A stretch of 32,000 bases of DNA from Moraxella nasovis (GTDB lineage: Bacteria > Pseudomonadota > Gammaproteobacteria > Pseudomonadales > Moraxellaceae): contig NZ_CP089976.1 of NCBI RefSeq assembly GCF_022701215.1, forward strand, positions 1,830,001-1,862,000. Direction: 5' to 3'. The notes under the pieces were generated by a model that was given only the letters and a program-made list of their open reading frames with translations, did not search any database and was not told the origin of the DNA. Shown here in pieces: positions 2,684-19,040 of the stretch. The number at the start of each line of letters is the position of its first letter. Positions within the stretch are counted from its first letter, which is position 1. The translations under genes and the position numbers were made by a program.

Positions 2684-3652
2684 ATGACTGCGTATCAAGC
2701 AAACTACTTTAACTCATCTGATTTAAAAACCATTTTGCATTCTAAGCGTGCTAATATTTACTATTTAGAATATTGCCGAGTTATGCAAAAAGGTGGGCGT
2801 GTGCTGTATCTTACTGAATCTGAAAAGGAAAATCTGTACTACAACATTCCCATAGCCAACACCACGAGTATTTTATTGGGTACAGGCACGTCCATCACCC
2901 AAGCTGCCATGCGAATGCTGTCGCAAGCAGGCGTGCTTGTGGGTTTTTGTGGGGGTGGTGGTACGCCGCTGTTGATGGGAGTGCAAATTGAGTGGCTGAC
3001 CCCACAAAGCGAATATCGCCCAACTCAATATGTGCAAGGGTGGCTGTCTTGGTGGTGGGACGATGACAAACGTTTGCTGATGGCAAAACAGCTTCAAACC
3101 GCACGGCTTGCATTTATGAAAGACGTGTGGGGGCGTGATAAAGACTTGCGACAGTGGGGCTTTGATAGCAAAACTGAGCCAATGACAAGCTTATTAAGCA
3201 ACTACCAAACCCAAGTGCTTAGGCAAAATGGCGTGAATGATTTATTGACCCTAGAAGGGCGAATGACCAAAGAATTATACCGCATTGCATCAGTGAATAC
3301 CAATAATGCTGGTTTTAGCCGTGAACATGATGGTATTGATAAGGCAAATGCTTTTTTGAATCACGGTAATTATTTGGCGTATGGCTTGGGGGCGACCACC
3401 GCTTGGGTGCTTGGCATTCCGCATGGGTTTGCAGTCATGCACGGCAAAACTCGGCGTGGGGCGTTGGTATTTGATATTGCCGATATTGTCAAAGATACGA
3501 TTGTGTTGCCGCTTGCGTTTATTTGTGCGTCCGAAAATGCCACCGAATCAGAATTTCGCCAAGAATGTTTGAATTATTTTACGACTTATCAGGCGTTGGA
3601 TGTGATGTTTGATACGGTAAAAGCGATGGCGTTGAATAAAGAGTGGAGTTAA
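2684..3652 (+). CDS. cas1: CRISPR-associated endonuclease Cas1, subtype I-F
   Basis: 322 aa. SDLKTILHSKRANIYYLEYCRV, IPIANTTSILLGTGTSITQAAMRMLSQAGVLVGFCGGGGTPL, WLTPQSEYRPTQY and HGNYLAYGLGATTAWVLGIPHGFAVMHGKTRRGALVFDIADIVKD are near-identical blocks to P. aeruginosa I-F Cas1. An AGGA SD lies before the ATG. Confidence 0.97.
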   Translation: MTAYQANYFNSSDLKTILHSKRANIYYLEYCRVMQKGGRVLYLTESEKENLYYNIPIANTTSILLGTGTSITQAAMRMLSQAGVLVGFCGGGGTPLLMGVQIEWLTPQSEYRPTQYVQGWLSWWWDDDKRLLMAKQLQTARLAFMKDVWGRDKDLRQWGFDSKTEPMTSLLSNYQTQVLRQNGVNDLLTLEGRMTKELYRIASVNTNNAGFSREHDGIDKANAFLNHGNYLAYGLGATTAWVLGIPHGFAVMHGKTRRGALVFDIADIVKDTIVLPLAFICASENATESEFRQECLNYFTTYQALDVMFDTVKAMALNKEWS

Positions 3653-3664
3653 CAGGGGGTTAAA

Positions 3665-6600
3665 ATGCTAGTTACATTTATCTTGCAATGTGAAAAAAAG
3701 GCATTAAACCGCACTCGGCGGATTTTGGATGCTTTTGCCAATCGGATTGGCGATCATGTGTGGCAAACGGCAATTACTGAAGATGGTTTAAATACCGTCA
3801 AAAAATTATTACGTCAATCTGCGACCAAATCCACAGCGGTGAGCTGTCATCGTGTCCGCACTCGTAAGCGAAGTCAATTGCTATGGGTGGTAGGTAATCG
3901 CAGGCGATTTAATGAACAGGGGGTGGTGGCGGTTAATCGCACTAAACGTAATATTTTAAACAGTGAATGGGAAAATAACTGGCAAAATCTCAACGCCATG
4001 ATGATTGTTAGTACCTTATCAGCATTGTTGCACGATATCGGCAAATCCACTGTAGGTTTTCAACAAAAATTGCTTCACTCTAGCAAATTGGGCGACCCCT
4101 ACCGCCATGAATGGATTTCGTTAAAACTATTGGTTTGGCTCATCAAAGACTGCCAAACGGATAAAGATGTTTTTCATAGACTGCAAAATATTGATGTATT
4201 TTTGGCGACACATCAGCCGACTTTGGCGGATATTCAAGGCAATATCGAAAAGTCAGAATTTGACAAATTGCCAAGCGTTACCCAATGGATAGCATGGCTC
4301 ATTGTCACGCATCACCGCTTACCTTATCTGGCAGGATATTTTTTTAATAGTAAAAAAAACAGAAGAATATCTACAACTTAATCATTTGCATTTTAAACGC
4401 AAAATAGATAGTTATTATAAAAAGTATATTAAGCCATTTGATTATTGGGTCAAAAATCCAAAATCGATTGAAGAAATGACGGATAAACAAAAACAGCAGT
4501 TTTTTAGTTTTGAAAATTTGGTATTAAATAGCCCAGATTGGCAAAAGCAAGTCAAACGCTATGCCAAAAAGGCAGAACAAGACATCGTATTGACTCAATT
4601 TGGCGAGCAAAATCAGGCGATTGCCAATCCTTTTTTTACTCATGCTTTCTCGCATGAGTGTCATGGTTGCCGACCATAATTATTCTAGCTTAAAAGACAA
4701 TCTAGACGATAAAAAACGCCGAGTACAAGGCAGTAAAGACTGGGTAGAAAAATTGGTTGCCAATACCGACCGTAAAACAGGAAAAATTAATCAGCCATTA
4801 GATGAACACTTGCTTGGCGTGGCACGTTTCACCGCAGAATTTTGCCGTAAATTACCAATTTTACACGAAAAATTACCCAGACTGGTTAATCACGAACATT
4901 TGATAAGAAATACGAATGAATCTTTGTTTGCTTGGCAAAACAAAGCCTTTAAATTGGCGTTATCTTTGAGCGAACACAGCGAAACACATGGCTTTTTTGG
5001 GGTTAATATGGCTTCAACAGGCTGTGGCAAAACCATTGGCAATGCTCGAATTATGTATGCTTTGTCCAATCCCAAAAAAGGAGCAAGGCTAACAATTGCC
5101 TTGGGGTTAAGGGTTTTGACATTGCAAACAGGGAAGAGTTTTCGCAAAAATTTGAAGCTAAACGACAGCCAATTGGCGATTTTGGTCGGTGGTTTGGCTC
5201 AAAAGCAATTGTTTGAATACAATCAAAATCAAACCGATGATAATACGCAAATCGATGATGACAATACGTTGTCTAGATTTGGCAATGAATCGGCTGATTG
5301 TTTGATTGATGAATACGTTGATAGCGATAACTTTGACGGTGTTTTGGACGATTTGCAGTTGGATACAGTCATTGAAGATAAATCCGCTTGGCAGTTACTC
5401 GCTTCGCCGATTGTCACTTGTACCATTGACCATCTGATGCAAGCTTGCGAGTGCAAACGTGGGGGCGGATATATCGCTCCGATGCTGCGGTTGTTTAGTG
5501 GTGATTTGATATTAGATGAGCCAGATGATTTTGACCAAAACGATATGCCAGCGTTATCAAGACTTGTGCATTTGGCAGGGCTGTTCGGCTCTCGTGTGCT
5601 GTTGTCGTCTGCGACTTTGCCACCTGATATGCTGTATGGGCTGTTTCAAGCCTATGTGGCAGGGCGAAAAATTTATAATGAACAATTTGGTTATGGCAGT
5701 CCGCACATAAGCTGTGCGTGGTTTGATGAAAATAATGCGATAAGCAAAAACTGTCAAACGCTTGATGATTTTAACCAAACTCATCAAACTTTTATCCAAA
5801 AACGTGGTCAATTTTTGCAAAAACAACCGATAAGACGTATGGCAGAAATTTTGCCAATCAATGCCACTTATCATGGCGAAAAACAAGCCCAATTTTATCA
5901 AGAAATCGCCAAGCAGTTATTAAGCCGTGCCAAAAAATTTCATGATAATCATCATGTGACGGCGAATAATAAGAATGTGAGTGTTGGCTTGATTCGTATG
6001 GCAAATATTCAACCATTGATGAAAATTGCCCAAGCCATGCACCAATTACAAACATTAGATGAAAGTCTTAACCAAAATGCGACAAGTCAAAATGACACGC
6101 ATTTTTACCTGTGTTGTTATCACTCACAACAGGTTTTGGCTTTACGAAATCGTTTAGAAAATCGTCTTGATGGTGTGCTAAATCGCCATCAATTCAATGC
6201 AGACGAATTTGTTAAGCGTCAAGATATTGCCCAATTTATCGCCAAAAACCCCACCAAAACCAATCATGTATTTATTGTGCTTGCTACCCCTGTGGCGGAA
6301 GTGGGGCGTGATCATGATTATGACTGGGCAATGGTTGAGCCAAGTTCGATGCGGTCTATTATTCAGCTTGCAGGGCGTGTATGGCGACACCGAAGTGAGT
6401 TGGTGGCAAGTACGCCAAATATTGGCATTTGGCAATATAATATTAGAGCATTAACAAGCCGAGTGCAACAAAACAGTCAATCTGCGGTATTCAACAAACC
6501 TGGTTTTGAGAGCAAACAATACCTACTTGATACCCATGATATGGCGGAATTGATTGAACCTACTACTTTGCAAAAAATTGATGCCATGAGCCGTATTCAA

Positions 6601-7089
6601 AAACCAACAATGCTCAATCCCAAAACAAGCTTGGTAGATTTAGAACATCAAGTGATGGCAGATTTGATGAATAATTCGCAATTTAATGTGGTCAATGCTT
6701 ATTTCCAAGACAGCCAAACTTCCAATCGTAGCCATGTACATCTAAGTGCATTAACGCCATTTCGGGCAGGACGAGCCAACATTGAATACATCGTCAAACC
6801 TAGCGATGATACGTTTAAGGTGTATCATAGCGAAAGTGTGAAAGAGTACACTTTATACCATGCAAATACGCTAAATAGCGTGATTGAGCCGTATGAAGTG
6901 CCGACCAATAGCCCATTGGTGGATGTGTGGCTTGATAGCCGATTGGATGATGTGTTGGCAGAATTGGAGCAAAAATTCGTGGAATTAAGCTCAAATTCGG
7001 TAGTGATTCGCTTTTCCAATGTCGCCTTAGCCGAACATCAAAGTGGTTATTACTTTGATGAACGCTTTGGCTGTTGGAAAAAGGATTGA
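3665..7089 (+). pseudogene. cas3: Cas2-Cas3 fusion (Cas2/3, subtype I-F) split into three ORFs by two +1 frameshifts
   Basis: ORFs 3665-4381 (frame 2), 4302-4679 (frame 0) and 4600-7089 (frame 1) join into one protein. It has an N-terminal Cas2 domain, HD motifs (LHDIGK, HEW, THHRLP), the linker ...AIANPF|LLMLSRMSVMVADHNYSS, and SF2 helicase motifs: ASTGCGKT (I), LILDEPDDF (II), SSATLP (III), ATPVAEVGRDHDYDW (V) and QLAGRVWRH (VI). The frame changes coincide with T7/A8 (4339-4359) and T7 (4631-4637). Identity confidence is high. Whether it is a true pseudogene or an assembly error is unresolved. Confidence 0.85.
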
Positions 7090-7159
7090 TAAGCCACCTA
7101 TGCGGTGGTAAACACATTTTAAAATCATATAACTTTCTAAGCCACCTGTGCGGTGCAAC
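7086..7159 (-). ncRNA. Degenerate mini-CRISPR (psiR1, 20-nt pseudo-spacer, psiR2); candidate crRNA-like regulatory RNA (CreR/CreA-like)
   Basis: Read on the minus strand: gttgcaccgcacaggtggcttagaaa | gttatatgattttaaaatgt | gtttaccaccgcataggtggcttatcaa. Both flanks are clear derivatives of the array repeat gttYaccaccgtataggtggcttagaaa. The 5' handle cttagaaa and the hairpin stems are retained. psiR2 overlaps the cas2-3 stop codon (7087-7089). Confidence 0.8.
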
Positions 7160-7162
7160 TGC

Positions 7163-7191
7163 ATTTTATACCATAACAATACAATTTTCAA
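7163..7191 (-). promoter_or_regulatory. Predicted sigma70 promoter driving the mini-CRISPR
   Basis: Minus strand: TTGAAA (plus 7191-7186), 17 nt, TAAAAT (plus 7168-7163). The predicted start at about 7157-7155 falls at the first nucleotides of psiR1, upstream of its hairpin. Confidence 0.55.
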
Positions 7192-7197
7192 AAATAT

Positions 7198-7219
7198 TAC
7201 TTTTATAATCAAATAACGG
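7198..7219 (+). promoter_or_regulatory. Predicted cas8f (csy operon) promoter -10 region, which is also the PAM-flanked target of the mini-CRISPR pseudo-spacer
   Basis: A perfect TATAAT sits at 7204-7209, 40 nt upstream of the first cas8f ATG. I see no convincing -35, only A/T-rich upstream DNA. The minus strand 7219->7198 reads CC|GTTATTTGATTATAAAAGTA against the pseudo-spacer GTTATATGATTTTAAAATGT. Positions 1-5, 7-11 and 13-17 match. Confidence 0.6.
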
Positions 7220-7248
7220 TTGATTAAAAAAGGCAACTGTGGTTTAAT

Positions 7249-8667
7249 ATGATTAAGTCATCAATGAAGGATAAAAAGTTTATGATAACAAGCATCACTG
7301 AGCGACAAATCAAAGATGCAGTTCAAGCGTTTTTGACGGCTCAATATGACAAAAAGACAGAGAAAGAGCAAAAGCAACTTGCCAAAGCCATTGAAGAGAA
7401 TGATGTGGCAAAAATTGCTGAAATTAATGCCATTTTGCAACCGTTTAAAGATAAATATCAAAAATCAGCTTGGCTCATTGAAGCCAAAAAAATGGCGGAG
7501 CATGTCCAAGTTGGCACACACGTTTCTAAGGGGGTGCATTCTAGTTCTCGTGGTGATAATGTCAATTTTAATCAAGCAGTTGGGCATGATTTTGTTAACA
7601 CAAAAACGATTGAAAGTCGGTTTTTAGATGCTAATAGCCCACGGGGTGCGATTGATTTGCCGTTGGTGTCATTTTTTGAATGGGAAATTGCCGATACAGG
7701 CGTGAAAATGCGTGAAGCGATTTTGCAAAATTCATCTGCGGTGCAAGCCTGTTTTGCCGATGATTTGGACTTATCCAAGCAATTTCAGCAAACTTTTTTG
7801 GATTGCTTAAATAATCAAATCAAGCAACCTAAAACCCACGAAAGCAATAAACAAATTTTATGGGCATTGACACAAGATACTGATAGTGCTGATGATGGTA
7901 ATGGTTATGTGACTCTTGTCCCATTATATCCTGCTGTTCTCGCCCATGAATTTTTTCAAATGGTGAATCAAAAACGGTATTCTGATGAGAATAAATTGGC
8001 TCGTGATAATCGCACCAAAAAAACAGCCAAACAACAGCCGTATTTGACTATGAAAGACATGGCAACCGTTCAACTTGGCGGTACAAAACCACAAAATGTC
8101 AGCCAACTGATGAGCAAGCAAGGCGGACGCAATTATTTATTACCGTCTATGCCACCGATTTTCCGCCAATCGCAAGGCATTCGCCTATCGCCGAATGAAG
8201 CCAGTATCTTTGCCACTAAAGCGTTGGAATACAAAGCAAAAGACGCACTCCAATCCTTATTTAATCTTATCAAAACCAACTACAACAACGTCAATATTCG
8301 TGATGCTCGCAAAGCAATTTTGTCAGACATTGCCTATCAAGTAATTAGCATGGGCGAAACCTTGCAAACGGTACGTTCTGCAGGTTGGTCAAAAGATTAC
8401 CACAATTTATCTATGAACCAAAAATATTGGCTTGACCCAAAACGTGCCGAATTGGACGGAGAGGAAGAATTTAAATTGGCAAGAGAAACTAAAGATTGGC
8501 GGGCAGCGATTGAAGTCGATTTTGCCAATTGGTTGCAAGCAATTTTTAGACGTGAATTTAAAGCGATTGCCCATGACTTTGCCGACCCAGAGCACCTTGA
8601 ATGGCGACGTGAAATGGAAGATGAAATCAAAAAAGCCCTTAGATTGGGTAAAGGAGGTTTGGCATGA
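7249..8667 (+). CDS. csy1: Cas8f / Csy1, large subunit of the type I-F Cascade (Csy complex)
   Basis: 472-aa ORF in the canonical position directly after cas2-3 and before csy2-csy3-cas6f. The call rests mainly on synteny and size. There are three in-frame ATGs (7249, 7264, 7282). Only 7282 has a good SD (GAAGGA 7266-7271), so the true start may be 7282 (MITSITERQIKDAVQAFL...). Confidence 0.85.
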   Translation: MIKSSMKDKKFMITSITERQIKDAVQAFLTAQYDKKTEKEQKQLAKAIEENDVAKIAEINAILQPFKDKYQKSAWLIEAKKMAEHVQVGTHVSKGVHSSSRGDNVNFNQAVGHDFVNTKTIESRFLDANSPRGAIDLPLVSFFEWEIADTGVKMREAILQNSSAVQACFADDLDLSKQFQQTFLDCLNNQIKQPKTHESNKQILWALTQDTDSADDGNGYVTLVPLYPAVLAHEFFQMVNQKRYSDENKLARDNRTKKTAKQQPYLTMKDMATVQLGGTKPQNVSQLMSKQGGRNYLLPSMPPIFRQSQGIRLSPNEASIFATKALEYKAKDALQSLFNLIKTNYNNVNIRDARKAILSDIAYQVISMGETLQTVRSAGWSKDYHNLSMNQKYWLDPKRAELDGEEEFKLARETKDWRAAIEVDFANWLQAIFRREFKAIAHDFADPEHLEWRREMEDEIKKALRLGKGGLA

Positions 8668-9602
8668 GTTTTATTTATTCAAATCTAAGCTGTATCGGTT
8701 ATGTATTGATTAAAAAAATCAAGATTATCAACGCCAATGCCATTTCTAGCCCATTGACTTACGGTTTTCCTGCGATAACGGGCTTTACAGGAGCGGTTCA
8801 TGCGTTGAGCCGAAAAGTGAGCCAAATTGACGGCTTGGACGATGTGCGTTTGGACGGTGTGTTAATCGCTTGCCACGAATGTCAAGTGCAGACCTACCGT
8901 GAAAGCAGTTATAAAGATTTTACCTTTATCCAAACTCGCAATCCGCTCAAAAAAGATGGCAAAACTGCGTCTATCATTGAAGAAGGGCGGTGTCATTTGA
9001 CGGTGTCATTGGTTATTGGCATCTATGCTGACGATTACTTGGAAGATGAACAAGTTGAATTATTAAATAATAAGGTTAAAGATTTAATTCAACAACAACG
9101 TATCGCTGGCGGTAGTGTCATGGGTCTAGATAAATTTGAGCCTGTGAGTTTTCTAGAACAAGAAGATATTTCTAAATTCGTGCCAAAACTATTGCCTGCC
9201 TTTGTTTTGACCGACGCTCACGACAGCCTGCAAGCGATTACCCAACAATTACAAGCCAAAAATCCTAATGCCACCGCTTTGGACGCTTTATTAGAAACCG
9301 CTACGTTGCACCATGTGCCAAACGATGAACACGGCTCAAGCTGGTCGGTAGAAAGCGTCAAAAAAGGACGTGGGTGGCTTGTGCCAATCCCTGTGGGTTA
9401 TCAAGGCATTTCGCCAAAATTTGATGCAGGTCAAATGCAAAATGCTCGCAATAGCGAATACCCAAGCCAATATGTGGAAGCCATTTATAGTTTGGGTAAA
9501 TGGGTATTTCCTTATTCAATAGAAAAACTTGCAACCGCCCTTTGGTATCAACGCTATGATGAAACACAAGATTTATATTTGGTTAGTCATAAATCGGATT
9601 AA
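8664..9602 (+). CDS. csy2: Cas5f / Csy2
   Basis: 312-aa ORF overlapping the csy1 stop by 4 nt (ATGA coupling). Position and size fit I-F Csy2. The call rests on synteny. Confidence 0.85.
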   Translation: MSFIYSNLSCIGYVLIKKIKIINANAISSPLTYGFPAITGFTGAVHALSRKVSQIDGLDDVRLDGVLIACHECQVQTYRESSYKDFTFIQTRNPLKKDGKTASIIEEGRCHLTVSLVIGIYADDYLEDEQVELLNNKVKDLIQQQRIAGGSVMGLDKFEPVSFLEQEDISKFVPKLLPAFVLTDAHDSLQAITQQLQAKNPNATALDALLETATLHHVPNDEHGSSWSVESVKKGRGWLVPIPVGYQGISPKFDAGQMQNARNSEYPSQYVEAIYSLGKWVFPYSIEKLATALWYQRYDETQDLYLVSHKSD

Positions 9603-9669
9603 CTATAATCAGTTTTAACCAAACCTTTAACAAAATCGTAATTTAACGCCATTTCATAGGAGAATTAAC

Positions 9670-10680
9670 ATGGCAAAAAATGACTTAAAAACCGCATCAG
9701 TCCTTGCTTTTGAGCGTGTACTTGATATTTCGGACGCATTTTTTTGGCAAAAAGACAGTCAAGATAAAGAAAGCAAAACATCCATTGTCACCGTTCAAGA
9801 AAAATCGGTGCGTGGTACGATTAGCAACCGCCTAAAAAATGCGATTGCCAATAACCTTGTCAAATTGGATCCCGAAACACAAAAAGCCAATTTGCAAAAA
9901 GTTGATGCCAGTAGTCTTGATGAAAGCAATGACACATTGGTAGCAAAATTTACTTGCAAGGTGTTGCCATTTACAGGTAAGCCGAATGTGTGTAATGACC
10001 AAGATTACCAACAAGCCTTGATGGCGGTGGTGCAAGATTACCAACAAAATCAAGGCGTGGGCGAACTTGCCAAACGCTATGCGACCAATATTGTCAATGC
10101 TCGTTGGCTGTGGCGAAATCGTGTGGGGGCAGAAACCATCACTGTGATGGTGAGTTTTAACGATGATGCGTTGATGTTTAACGCCAAAGATTTTGCGTTA
10201 AATACCTTTAACCACGATGATAAAGATTTAGCCCAATTAGCTAAATGGATTGAAAGCGGTTTGACAGGCGAAAAATTTGTGATTTTATCGGTTGTCGCTT
10301 ATGCCAAAATCGGCTATGGTCAAGAAGTGTATCCATCACAAGAGCTTATCCTTGATACAGGGAACAAAAAAAGCAAGGTGCTGTACCGTGTTGGCGATGT
10401 TAGTAAAAACCATGCAGGAATGCACTCGCAAAAAGTCAGCAATGCCATCCGCACGATTGATGATTGGTATCCAGATGCTAAGTTTCCGATTGCTGTTGAG
10501 CCGTATGGAGCAGTAACGACTTTGGGAGTAGCGTTCCGCCAACCTAAACAAAAACAAGACTTTTATAGTTTGTTTGATAATTGGGTGCTAAAAGGTGAAG
10601 TCCCAGATATCAATCAACAGCATTATGTCATGGGCGTGTTGATTCGTGGCGGTGTGTTTGGCGAAAGTGGTAAGGAGTAA
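9670..10680 (+). CDS. csy3: Cas7f / Csy3, Cascade backbone subunit
   Basis: 336-aa ORF with an AGGAG SD. Position and size match I-F Csy3 (about 340 aa). Confidence 0.88.
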   Translation: MAKNDLKTASVLAFERVLDISDAFFWQKDSQDKESKTSIVTVQEKSVRGTISNRLKNAIANNLVKLDPETQKANLQKVDASSLDESNDTLVAKFTCKVLPFTGKPNVCNDQDYQQALMAVVQDYQQNQGVGELAKRYATNIVNARWLWRNRVGAETITVMVSFNDDALMFNAKDFALNTFNHDDKDLAQLAKWIESGLTGEKFVILSVVAYAKIGYGQEVYPSQELILDTGNKKSKVLYRVGDVSKNHAGMHSQKVSNAIRTIDDWYPDAKFPIAVEPYGAVTTLGVAFRQPKQKQDFYSLFDNWVLKGEVPDINQQHYVMGVLIRGGVFGESGKE

Positions 10681-11286
10681 GTGATGAATTTCTATCAAGA
10701 AATCACACTGATACCTGATGCTGAAATCTCGCCTTACTTCCTATGGAGTAAGGTGTATCATCAGCTACATATCGCCCTTGCCGATGTCAAAAATAAGCAT
10801 GGCATAGATGGTATTGGGATCAGTTTTCCTAACTATCGTTTTGAGGAAAAAGACGGCAAAACCTTTGCCACGCTTGGCACAAAGTTACGCATTTTTGCCA
10901 ATACCGAAGATGAACTAATAAAGCTTGATGTGAATTATAGGTTGGAGCGATTGACCGACTATGTTCATATCAAGCCAATCCGAGAAGTTGGCAGCCAAGC
11001 AAAAGGCTATGTGGTGGTAAAACGCCATCGCTACAAAAATTTTGACAAACAAGTGGCGAAATTTGCCAAGTTTAAAGGCATAAGTTTGGAAGAATCGCAC
11101 GCCCATTGCCGTGAACACAAGCAACCGATAAAGTATTATCCGTTTATCACCCTAAATAGTGAAACCACCCAACAGCCTTATCAACTGTCTATTTGGCAAG
11201 AAGCGGTGGATTCGCCTGTGGCAGGAAAGTTTAATACATATGGACTAAATAGCCTATCGGGCAGCGTAACTGTACCGCATTGGTAA
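10681..11286 (+). CDS. cas6f: Cas6f / Csy4 crRNA endoribonuclease
   Basis: It aligns by eye with P. aeruginosa Csy4: YQEITLIPDAE~YLDIRLRPDPE, IGISFP~IGVSFP, LRIFA~LRIHA, PFITLNSETTQQPYQLSI~PFVTLRSQSTGQHFRLFI, and C-terminal GKFNTYGLNS...VPHW~GGFTCYGLSKGGFVPWF. The track start at 10681 is GTG. ATG 10684 is better placed after the AAGGAG at 10672-10677. Confidence 0.95.
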   Translation: MMNFYQEITLIPDAEISPYFLWSKVYHQLHIALADVKNKHGIDGIGISFPNYRFEEKDGKTFATLGTKLRIFANTEDELIKLDVNYRLERLTDYVHIKPIREVGSQAKGYVVVKRHRYKNFDKQVAKFAKFKGISLEESHAHCREHKQPIKYYPFITLNSETTQQPYQLSIWQEAVDSPVAGKFNTYGLNSLSGSVTVPHW

Positions 11287-11458: not shown

Positions 11459-13829
11459 GTTCACCACCGTATAGGTGGCTTAGAAAATTGACACACAGGG
11501 CAATGACGGACATGGCAGGTTCACCACCGTATAGGTGGCTTAGAAACGTCTGATTTGCTCTCTGGTGGCGTTTTAGATAGTTCACCACCGTATAGGTGGC
11601 TTAGAAATTACCGCCAAAAAATTGCCCCATAAACGAGCTTGTTCACCACCGTATAGGTGGCTTAGAAAAGATTAGCAAACTTGCCAAACAAGCAGGGATT
11701 GTTCACCACCGTATAGGTGGCTTAGAAATATTTGGGGCATGACTCATACGTTCAACGTATGTTCACCACCGTATAGGTGGCTTAGAAAATACACCACGCC
11801 CATACGCAACGCCATACACCGTTCACCACCGTATAGGTGGCTTAGAAACCCAAGTGTCAAGGTAGTATTTTGGGCTTCGCGTTCACCACCGTATAGGTGG
11901 CTTAGAAACCAAATTTAACCAATGAATTTTCTGACCCTGCTGTTCACCACCGTATAGGTGGCTTAGAAACTTACGCAGGGGGGGGGATTTTTAGGCTATC
12001 GTTCACCACCGTATAGGTGGCTTAGAAAACCAAAAAGCGTAAGCCCTTCACTTGGCGGAAGTTCACCACCGTATAGGTGGCTTAGAAATTGACACTCGGA
12101 AGTGGTGTGATAAAAAAAATGTTCACCACCGTATAGGTGGCTTAGAAAGATAGCAAATGTTCTAAAATCATTTGCTTTTTGTTCACCACCGTATAGGTGG
12201 CTTAGAAATGTGGTGAGTGCGGTTTCAATTGTTTGTAAGAGTTCACCACCGTATAGGTGGCTTAGAAAGTTCATAGCGTACCGCCTTATTGCCCCTGTCA
12301 GTTCACCACCGTATAGGTGGCTTAGAAAAATTAAACACAAGCTAAACATTAAACCCATTTGTTCACCACCGTATAGGTGGCTTAGAAACAATTGCCCTAG
12401 AACGCAGAAAGCAGGACGAGGTTCACCACCGTATAGGTGGCTTAGAAACTAATGTATAAATACAAGTAGAAACCCCCCAGTTTACCACCGTATAGGTGGC
12501 TTAGAAATGCATGAATGGCGGTATGTAGCAATTTTACCCGTTTACCACCGTATAGGTGGCTTAGAAATACTGCACGATTAAGCACGGTTGAGCGATAACG
12601 TTTACCACCGTATAGGTGGCTTAGAAAGTCCCTTGTGCGTTCTGAATACATTAAGTGCAGTTTACCACCGTATAGGTGGCTTAGAAAAAATAAAGTCAGT
12701 GAAATCAAGGGTTTGTAGAGTTTACCACCGTATAGGTGGCTTAGAAAGGTACTATATGCTTTTGAAAGTTTTGCTTTAGGTTCACCACCGTATAGGTGGC
12801 TTAGAAAGCCCATGCCAAATGCGGCATCTTATTGATTTTGTTCACCACCGTATAGGTGGCTTAGAAAAAAGAGGAAACCATTATGGCAAAGTTCACCAAG
12901 TTCACCACCGTATAGGTGGCTTAGAAACGCTTTTTTGCTGTTTTTCGCCCGCCGCGTCGCGTTCACCACCGTATAGGTGGCTTAGAAATATAATAATGCT
13001 GTACTATCAACAACAAAACAGTTTACCACCGTATAGGTGGCTTAGAAATGATTTTATATCTTCATCAGTCATTGGCTCGCGTTTACCACCGTATAGGTGG
13101 CTTAGAAAATGCTTTTTTGACGCTGTCTGACTGAGTGTTAGTTTACCACCGTATAGGTGGCTTAGAAAATGCTTTTTTGACGCTGTCTGACTGAGTGTTA
13201 GTTTACCACCGTATAGGTGGCTTAGAAACCAACGTGCGTTTAATTTTGTCAATGTTCATTTGTTTACCACCGTATAGGTGGCTTAGAAAATACTGCACCA
13301 ACACCTGAGCAGATGAAACAGGTTTACCACCGTATAGGTGGCTTAGAAAACTTGGCGAACATGGCAGGGTCAGGACAATATGTTTACCACCGTATAGGTG
13401 GCTTAGAAAATCATGTGCGTTTCTATGACTTTTTTTGACTGGTTTACCACCGTATAGGTGGCTTAGAAATTAAAATTAGAGCGTGAACGTCAAATCAAAC
13501 AGTTTACCACCGTATAGGTGGCTTAGAAAATTGAATCAACAAGATTTCTAGCAGATGGGTTGTTCACCACCGTATAGGTGGCTTAGAAATTCAGTAAACA
13601 CTCAACTTTTTACACTAACTGGTTCACCACCGTATAGGTGGCTTAGAAAATGATTTGTTTAACAATACCGTTTGGCACACTGTTCACCACCGTATAGGTG
13701 GCTTAGAAATTCAATGTATTTAGCAGACTGCGTAAAGCGTTGTTCACCACCGCATAGGTGGCTTAGAAAAGATGATTTAAGGTGGTGTTATGAGCAACAA
13801 TGTTCACCACCGCATAGGTGGCTTAGAAA
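11459..13829 (+). CRISPR. Type I-F CRISPR array with 40 repeats of 28 nt and 39 spacers (38 unique)
   Basis: The repeat is gttcaccaccgtataggtggcttagaaa, the I-F family (compare P. aeruginosa GTTCACTGCCGTATAGGCAGCTAAGAAA). The unit period is 60 nt and spacers are 31-33 nt. Repeat starts: 11459, 11519, 11580, 11641, 11701, 11761, 11821, 11881, 11942, 12001 ... 13742, 13802. The variants are gttC (R1-17, 23-26, 36-38), gttT (R18-22, 27-35) and gttC with t12c (R39-40). Confidence 0.99.
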
Positions 13830-13941
13830 GTTCTTTGCTTGATGTGTCGTTTTATCAACGTCTTTTAATGCTTTTTGTAATCTTGTTAGTTCATCTGCAT
13901 TTTTCACATCAATAGTAATGCTCATGCGTTTATCTGACATA

Positions 13942-14343
13942 TTACCCCCTTACAAACTCATCTAACTCAAAAACCACATCATCAATCAGCCACCTTGCCA
14001 TAGCGATAGGATTTACTGTTAGCACATCGCTAATATCCTTAACCAACAAAGGTAATGCCACGTCATGATGATAACGCCTAGCACGGCTTACTAATACAAA
14101 CACACGCATAACATCATCAAGCAGTGGATTTGCCACCACTTCATCAGGCAGTGGCAAATTTAACCTTTGGTAAATCTCAATCCGCTTTGGGCTTAATTCT
14201 GACTTTGTTTTTTGCCATTTGCAGTGCTCGATGGCTTTTTTCACAGATTGCACCTGCTCACTGTATTCATGCATCATTTCGCTAAACGTGCTAATTAGCG
14301 TAACTAAAAACTCAGGTAAATCATCACCGATATTATCTAACAC
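13942..14343 (-). CDS. Hypothetical protein, possibly a 5'-truncated gene fragment
   Basis: 133-codon ORF with a GTG start in the track. The frame is open upstream only to a stop at 14380-14382 and has no ATG before codon 23. I recognise no family. It contains a weak Rx4H string (RARRYH). It lies between the array end and the degenerate repeat remnants. Confidence 0.4.
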   Translation of the reverse strand: MLDNIGDDLPEFLVTLISTFSEMMHEYSEQVQSVKKAIEHCKWQKTKSELSPKRIEIYQRLNLPLPDEVVANPLLDDVMRVFVLVSRARRYHHDVALPLLVKDISDVLTVNPIAMARWLIDDVVFELDEFVRG

Positions 14344-14394
14344 AATCAGTAAGTTATCACCGCTAGGCTCTAAGGTTTGCTATTAACTTTGATA

Positions 14395-14476
14395 GTTAAC
14401 CACACAGATGGCTCAGAAAAATCACTGGTTAATTCATTTTCCATCTCCGTTCACCACCACATAAACAGGCTGAAAG
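14395..14476 (+). repeat. Two degenerate CRISPR repeat remnants flanking a 29-nt spacer-like segment
   Basis: 14395-14419 gttaaccacacagatggctcagaaa and 14449-14476 gttcaccaccacataaacaggctgaaag, compared with the consensus gttcaccaccgtataggtggcttagaaa. They have the same orientation as the main array and lie about 565 bp beyond its last repeat. Confidence 0.55.
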
Positions 14477-14748
14477 CTTAAGTTGTCTGATATTTGGTAA
14501 AATAGCTGGTATGTTATAATAACTTTTTTGATATGTGAAATTTTACTGTATCTACTTTGGTTTAAAGTGTTAATGCTAAAAGAGTGGCGATTTTAAATAA
14601 TTTAGTTTGATGATACAGTAGGATAAGCATATGATTAATTGATGTTTTTTATTGGCACTAAGATAGTTAGTATGCTATAAACCGATAAAAGCAGGATTTG
14701 GACTGCCTAAAACTGTGCTATAATACCCCATTTACCTAGGATAAACCG

Positions 14749-18926: not shown

Positions 18927-19040
<114 letters not shown>

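Follow-up and report, generated by a model that had tools for sequence, protein, structure and literature searches.

The window, by which we mean the whole 32,000-nucleotide stretch of Moraxella nasovis DNA analyzed here, contains a type I-F1 CRISPR-Cas locus, and a mini-array lies between its genes cas2-3 and cas8f. The genes and the main array are arranged as follows:

2684-3652, cas1f
3665-7089, plus strand, cas2-3, convergent with the mini-array
7282-8667, plus strand, cas8f (csy1), first gene of the Cascade operon
7282-11286, operon of csy1/cas8f, csy2/cas5f, csy3/cas7f and csy4/cas6f, matched by NCBIfam Csy1-Csy4
11459-13829, plus strand, main CRISPR array, 40 repeats of consensus GTTCACCACCGTATAGGTGGCTTAGAAA with spacers of 31-33 nt

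The 461-aa Csy1 has an exact match in Moraxella nasovis, UNU73184.1, which fixes the start of cas8f at 7282 and not at 7249, where the open reading frame begins. Homologues of cas8f begin at the same position as the 7282 start, whose Shine-Dalgarno sequence AAGGA lies at 7267-7271.

The main array has some internal structure of its own. Two adjacent spacers (13109-13140 and 13169-13200) are identical (ATGCTTTTTTGACGCTGTCTGACTGAGTGTTA), and TRF reports 100% identity over 13081-13228. Repeat variants are grouped in blocks (12480-12747, 13021-13529 and 13742-13829), with GTTT replacing GTTC in two of these; the last two repeats have GCATA in their loop. In the region 13830-14477, the last intact repeat is followed by an insert of ~560 bp and then by two decayed repeat-like sequences, at ~14396-14420 and 14450-14477. 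The insert carries two minus-strand ORFs, one of 133 aa (13942-14343) with no match in Pfam, NCBIfam or PADLOC, and a second, small one that begins near 13940 and extends into the last repeat. The insert resembles a cassette that entered the array at its old trailer end. We considered the decayed repeats at ~14396-14477 as a second mini-array and rejected them, since the window holds no PAM-flanked seed match for them, and they therefore look like old trailer repeats. Elsewhere in the window, 18938-19034 corresponds to the Bacterial small SRP RNA (Rfam RF00169, 68.7 bits).

The mini-array consists of two repeat-like sequences around one spacer, apart from the main array, and is read on the minus strand from 7159 to 7086:

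7134-7159 (7159->7134), minus strand, psiR1, degenerate upstream repeat, 26 nt, GTTGCACCGCACAGGTGGCTTAGAAA
7114-7133 (7133->7114), minus strand, psiS, pseudo-spacer (guide), 20 nt, GTTATATGATTTTAAAATGT
7086-7113 (7113->7086), minus strand, psiR2, downstream repeat, 28 nt, GTTTACCACCGCATAGGTGGCTTATCAA
7094-7141, minus strand, predicted mature CreR RNA, 48 nt: CUUAGAAA, the 20-nt guide and GUUUACCACCGCAUAGGUGG
7163-7191, minus strand, predicted creR promoter: TTGAAA (7191->7186), 17 nt, TAAAAT (7168->7163), 10 of 12 matches

The coordinates and sequences of the three parts agree with those of a first-pass annotation of this DNA, which had also remarked, correctly, that the element departs from a canonical array: its spacer has 20 nt, against 31-33 nt in the main array, and its orientation is opposite to that of the cas operon and of the main array on the plus strand. 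To this can be added that the repeats are degenerate and only two in number.

Aligned with the array consensus, psiR1 shows a 2-nt deletion and three substitutions. The deletion, the intact handle and the 4-bp stem had all been described before, together with a count of two substitutions that holds against the GCATA repeat variant from the array end and not against the consensus. The psiR1 hairpin pairs C7155-C7152 with G7146-G7143, the predicted Cas6f cut falls between G7142 and C7141, and the 8-nt 5' handle (CTTAGAAA, 7141->7134) follows. As the stem is only 4 bp long and its closing C-G is replaced by G-G, Cas6f processing may be inefficient at this repeat. Regarding psiR2, four positions differ from the consensus, two of which are variants present in the main array; it has both GTTT and GCATA. 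Its first 20 nt (7113->7094) represent the 3' hairpin handle, while the last 8 nt are degenerate and include the stop codon of cas2-3 (TGA 7087-7089, plus strand), an overlap already pointed out in the first-pass annotation. Folding gives -5.6 kcal/mol for the 4-bp hairpin of psiR1 and -8.6 kcal/mol for the 5-bp hairpin of psiR2, the latter being the same as that of the array repeat. The hairpins and the handle, that is the parts relevant to processing and loading, are consequently all present in the element. Outside the array, psiR1 and psiR2 are the only repeat-like 28-mers in the window, and the Rfam model CRISPR-DR4 finds them on the minus strand only, with 27.2 bits (E 4e-4) for psiR2 and 17.4 bits for psiR1, both scores being below the gathering score of 35. 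The similarity of the two sequences to the array repeat is not due to chance.

Cas6f cleaves at the 3' base of the repeat hairpin. From this position, the mature CreR RNA would measure 48 nt (8 + 20 + 20), slightly less than the 50-60 nt anticipated earlier. The I-F CreA of Acinetobacter has the same 8 + 20 + 20 form by sRNA-seq (PMC10097628). The predicted creR transcript begins at about 7156, which is the base of the psiR1 hairpin; the degenerate 5' end of psiR1 would thus be left untranscribed and hence free to decay. The position of the predicted creR promoter is conserved in a multi-locus alignment, and in two related loci (L038 and L039) a promoter scan finds a counterpart, TTGACA-16-TAAAAT (11 of 12 matches), upstream of psiR1.

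The target of the guide had been missed in the first-pass annotation. We identified it in the same intergenic region, 65 bp from the mini-array and next to a candidate promoter of cas8f:

7198-7219 (7219->7198), minus strand, CreR target: PAM CC (7219-7218) and protospacer GTTATTTGATTATAAAAGTA (7217->7198)
7220-7248, plus strand, predicted cas8f promoter: -35 TTGATT (7220-7225), 17-nt spacer, -10 TTTAAT (7243-7248)

On the plus strand the PAM reads GG (7218-7219), and CC is the PAM of type I-F systems (PMC10120712). psiS and the protospacer match at 15 of 20 positions (1-5, 7-11 and 13-17) and mismatch at 6, 12 and 18-20, so that pairing spans positions 1-17 (7217->7201) save 6 and 12. In type I Cascade, every sixth base of the guide is flipped out and left unpaired (PMC10120712), and the mismatches at 6, 12 and 18 thus reproduce the type I pairing pattern. 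This partial complementarity, with a PAM-proximal seed at a CC-flanked chromosomal site, stands out from the background: among the CC-flanked sites of the window, the runner-up reaches 12 of 20 matches and lacks the seed, and there is a single occurrence of CC followed by the 10-nt seed. By chance, the intergenic region would be expected to hold ~4e-5 sites with CC and seed and 2e-7 with the 15-position match, and among simulated whole windows 11 of 2000 had any seed hit.

We then compared related loci, eight of which (L001-L008) came from Cas8f scans of genomes and metagenomes and the others (L038-L049) from a protein search with contig look-ups. A mini-array with this location and orientation is present in 16 loci including the window, from Moraxella osloensis, other Moraxella, a Neisseria MAG, Psychrobacter and metagenomes. 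These correspond to 13 independent psiS/target types (the window, L001-L003, L038-L042, L044, L045, L047 and L049), so that the element, whose conservation in related I-F loci the first-pass annotation had suggested checking, is now found in 12 further independent loci. In all 13 types, 9-10 of the 10 seed positions match a site that is flanked by CC and lies 58-75 nt, mostly 61-62 nt, upstream of the cas8f ATG. The pseudo-spacers themselves are mutually divergent (on average 9.7 of 17 positions identical), and over the pairing positions each matches its own target at a mean of 14.6 of 15, against 9.1 of 15 for the targets of other loci. Of the differences between loci, 425 have a matching change in the target and 30 are uncompensated. 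Per position, matching is ~100% at 1-5, 7-11 and 13-17, drops to background (15-31%) at 6, 12 and 18, and stays at that level beyond position 18.

In 12 loci, pairing in the psiR1 hairpin amounts to 90%, compared to 22-47% in slid controls, and these loci show 10 double-sided changes, a number reached in none of 500 shuffles; the aligned sequences indicate that the psiR1 hairpins are kept through compensatory changes. Moreover, four G-U pairs in these hairpins are compatible with a minus-strand RNA only. Conservation as a whole tracks the boundaries of a mature crRNA, namely handle, hairpins and seed.

These data bear on two readings in which the element would not be a guide RNA gene. According to the first, the mini-array would have no function and be the relic of an old inverted CRISPR array, decaying by drift, as the degeneracy of both repeats, the deletion in psiR1 and the short spacer might suggest. 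Furthermore, the element is absent from three related loci (L007, L046 and L048) and apparently decayed in a fourth (L043). However, degeneration is limited to the parts that the mature RNA does not include, 13 independent loci show covariation of seed and target, compensatory changes preserve the hairpins, and promoter and spacing are conserved, all of which makes a remnant extremely improbable. Selection rather than decay had been put forward in the first-pass annotation, and the PAM-flanked target by the cas8f promoter, together with the 12 further loci and the psiS/target covariation, bears this out. The patchy presence of the mini-array among related loci agrees with published descriptions. 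Among the loci that lack it, L046 (Rappaport israeli) has an intergenic region of 72 bp, and its csy3 (6909-7927) is called as two ORFs of 114 and 224 aa, possibly owing to a frameshift. In L040, a cassette (3696-4350) with a HigB-toxin gene and a partner ORF lies between the mini-array and the target, and the target still adjoins cas8f.

According to the second reading, the repeat likeness would be incidental, and the sequence would act as a plus-strand terminator for cas1-cas2-3 or as a minus-strand antisense to the 3' end of cas2-3. The psiR2 hairpin is indeed stable on either strand and lies directly after the cas2-3 stop, followed on the plus strand by an A/T-rich stretch, and a minus-strand transcript would enter cas2-3. 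Yet the T run is short and 9 nt away from the stem, a terminator scan found no terminator there, and the G-U pairs favour a minus-strand RNA. Since the handle, psiR1, the PAM-flanked target and the covariation are left unexplained, we regard both versions as very unlikely, although a secondary role of psiR2 as terminator or roadblock is possible.

A phage-borne mimic can also be considered, as viruses carry solitary repeats (Racr) and mini-arrays (Cracr). The element of M. nasovis lies inside a chromosomal cas operon. A scan of IMG/VR for handle plus seed returned 29 matches, none of which has a repeat hairpin upstream, so that all appear to be chance matches, and a blastn search with the intergenic region found no match among phage records.

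The PAM of the target lies 62 nt upstream of the cas8f ATG (7282) and adjoins the predicted cas8f promoter, whose -35 follows directly. The 17-nt spacer of this promoter ends in TGG (extended -10), its -10 TTTAAT is without the usual A at -11, and a leader of ~27 nt including AAGGA precedes the ATG. The promoter scan proposes an alternative 4-5 nt off (TTAAAA 7224-7229 / TATGAT 7248-7253). In the alignment, all 13 loci show GG, then TTGATT, TTGAAA, TTGACA or TTTACT, 17 nt and a TG-extended -10, and in L039 the scan itself recovers this promoter (TTGAAA-17-CATAAT with TG).

The target may be under a second constraint. On the plus strand, the hexamer adjacent to the PAM is TAnnnT, and thus -10-like, in 9 of 13 loci, the window being an exception (AATAAC, 7212-7217), and target position 6, which is unpaired with the guide, is an A in 10 of 13 loci including all nine with TAnnnT. 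The target may therefore contain a second or alternative promoter, and the sequences suggest that either a promoter or an UP element constrains the target; a promoter so placed would still be occluded by Cascade. As for TATAAT at 7204-7209, we rejected it as the regulated -10, because its position is not conserved and the window offers no -35 suitably spaced from it; it counts only towards the possible alternative promoter.

Taken together, we consider it highly probable that the element is a CreR-type autorepression mini-CRISPR of the type I-F1 system, which guides its own Cascade to the cas8f promoter. The likeness to CreA/CreR mini-arrays had been recognized in the first-pass annotation, and can now be narrowed to the CreR (Cas-autorepression) type as distinct from CreTA.

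The CreTA reading deserves particular attention. It holds that the element is a CreA antitoxin, whose guide represses a small toxin RNA or mini-ORF located between the target and cas8f and thereby makes the cell dependent on Cascade. The position between cas2-3 and csy1, the orientation, the 20-nt pseudo-spacer and the CC PAM match those of the CreTA of Acinetobacter sp. WCHA45 (PMC10097628) and of P. aeruginosa CreTA1/2, and the elements found at this same position in Acinetobacter and P. aeruginosa turned out to be CreTA antitoxins. In CreTA1, toxin and cas genes are under a common promoter, and the 5' leader could conceivably encode a toxin that is very small or non-canonical. However, the 62 nt between the PAM and the cas8f ATG are filled by the promoter elements and the ~27-nt leader, and the intergenic region has 192 bp, compared to ~400 bp in Acinetobacter. 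A unit of Shine-Dalgarno, mini-ORF and hairpin is conserved nowhere among the 13 loci: the upstream ATGs of the window (7249 and 7264) share the reading frame of cas8f, L001 has just a 3-codon ORF, L002 and L003 have none, and there are no mini-ORFs with consecutive proline or rare codons. We accordingly rejected a toxin in the leader, as neither a mini-ORF nor a hairpin unit is conserved across loci. Judged on sequence, then, no toxin gene lies directly downstream of the target; with the 62-nt gap filled and no conserved mini-ORF, we classify the element as CreR-type and hold a CreA antitoxin to be very unlikely.

In the CreR-type circuit, we infer that transcription, processing, binding and repression would take place with no cleavage of the target DNA. 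A sigma-70-type promoter on the minus strand would drive transcription from the base of the psiR1 hairpin, and Cas6f would cut after each hairpin to release a 48-nt crRNA-like RNA with a 20-nt guide. Together with Cas8f, Cas5f, Cas7f and Cas6f, this RNA would form a complex on 7219->7198, with 17 nt paired and positions 6 and 12 unpaired. Such pairing would permit binding and is probably too short for Cas2-3 recruitment and cleavage. The bound Cascade would cover the upstream/-35 region of the cas8f promoter, and because the PAM adjoins the -35, it would block RNA polymerase and repress its own operon. The crRNAs of the main array would compete with CreR for the Cascade proteins, and if Cascade were titrated by these crRNAs or inactivated by anti-CRISPRs, derepression would follow and more Cascade would be made.

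Several of these steps have experimental precedents in other systems. In P. aeruginosa, an I-F1 mini-array located at the corresponding site repressed the promoter of the Cascade operon and did not need Cas3 (PMC10120712), while CreR autorepression, as well as its response to crRNA load and to Acr proteins, was demonstrated in I-B, I-E and V-A systems (10.1101/2023.03.10.532045).

The state of the whole system is made uncertain by cas2-3, which is apparently frameshifted. Two homopolymer runs (T7/A8 and T7; 4339-4359 and 4631-4637) each carry a +1 shift, which divides the gene among three reading frames, and residues 231-325 of the M. osloensis homologue align to it in another frame. In neighbouring genes, seven other runs of at least 7 are in frame. 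The shifts may reflect either a real pseudogene or a sequencing error. The CreR circuit is intact, as are the Cascade genes and the 40-spacer array. Should the shifts be real, DNA cleavage has possibly been lost, and a self-limited Cascade may silence its targets instead of cutting them. That the locus persists as such a natural binding-only (CRISPRi-like) system is, however, unlikely. A separate idea of similarly low probability is that the single Cascade footprint, which would lie only ~6-9 bp from the -35 of creR, represses both divergent promoters at once.

The closest known counterparts are the cas3-cas8f mini-arrays of I-F1 systems (Shmakov et al. 2023, PMC10120712), which belong to the same subtype and lie in the same intergenic region, in an orientation opposite to cas3. 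As in the M. nasovis element, their promoter-proximal repeat is the more degenerate one, the spacer is short, the PAM is CC, every sixth position mismatches, and the target lies at the cas8 promoter; their presence among related loci is patchy as well. Published examples include P. aeruginosa YL84 (reporter-tested), Moraxella osloensis and Acinetobacter loci (PMC10120712). M. nasovis differs from these as another species with its own psiS/target pair, and its Cas8f is 79% identical to that of M. osloensis.

CreR (Liu et al. 2023, 10.1101/2023.03.10.532045) is likewise a toxin-less degenerate mini-CRISPR with partial complementarity to a cas promoter, and the predicted autorepression in M. nasovis would share its sensitivity to crRNA load and anti-CRISPRs. 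By contrast, I-F was not among the systems tested in that study, and the M. nasovis guide has 20 nt with 17 nt of pairing; bacterial I-F CreA/CreR pseudo-spacers typically have 23-27 nt (10.1101/2024.10.29.618823).

With respect to CreTA, the system of Acinetobacter sp. WCHA45 (PMC10097628) occupies the same intergenic region and has the same 8-nt handle, 20-nt psiS and 20-nt 3' handle and the same CC PAM, and P. aeruginosa CreTA1/2 (10.64898/2026.06.02.729485) agree in intergenic region, mini-array design and CC PAM. Both also share with M. nasovis a divergent target promoter. In these systems the guide represses a small RNA toxin between the target and csy1 (PMC10097628; 10.64898/2026.06.02.729485), made of a Shine-Dalgarno sequence and a mini-ORF (PMC10097628), plus a hairpin in P. 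aeruginosa (10.64898/2026.06.02.729485). M. nasovis, unlike them, has neither the room nor a conserved toxin-like unit, and its target adjoins the cas8f promoter itself.

In the literature searched, we found no publication on the M. nasovis element, whose protein accessions presumably postdate the November 2021 database of Shmakov et al. Non-canonical, partly complementary guides that make the effector a transcriptional repressor include tracr-L of type II-A and scaRNA of type II-B. These work with the class 2 effector Cas9 and differ in RNA origin and architecture, so that their likeness to the M. nasovis element is functional only.

The kind of element described here is already published for I-F1, in this exact layout and with M. 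osloensis examples (PMC10120712); the arrangement in M. nasovis is therefore no oddity and raises no new question, and the element adds to a known kind. It represents a well-supported addition to the CreR/regulatory mini-array class. What the natural variation of the 13 loci brings is a pairing limited to positions 1-5, 7-11 and 13-17, and a PAM that is fixed directly next to the Cascade promoter's -35 and whose distance to cas8f is nearly constant (61-62 nt). These features help annotate such elements, which gene callers and Rfam thresholds overlook, and may aid prediction of how Moraxellaceae I-F systems would respond to anti-CRISPRs.
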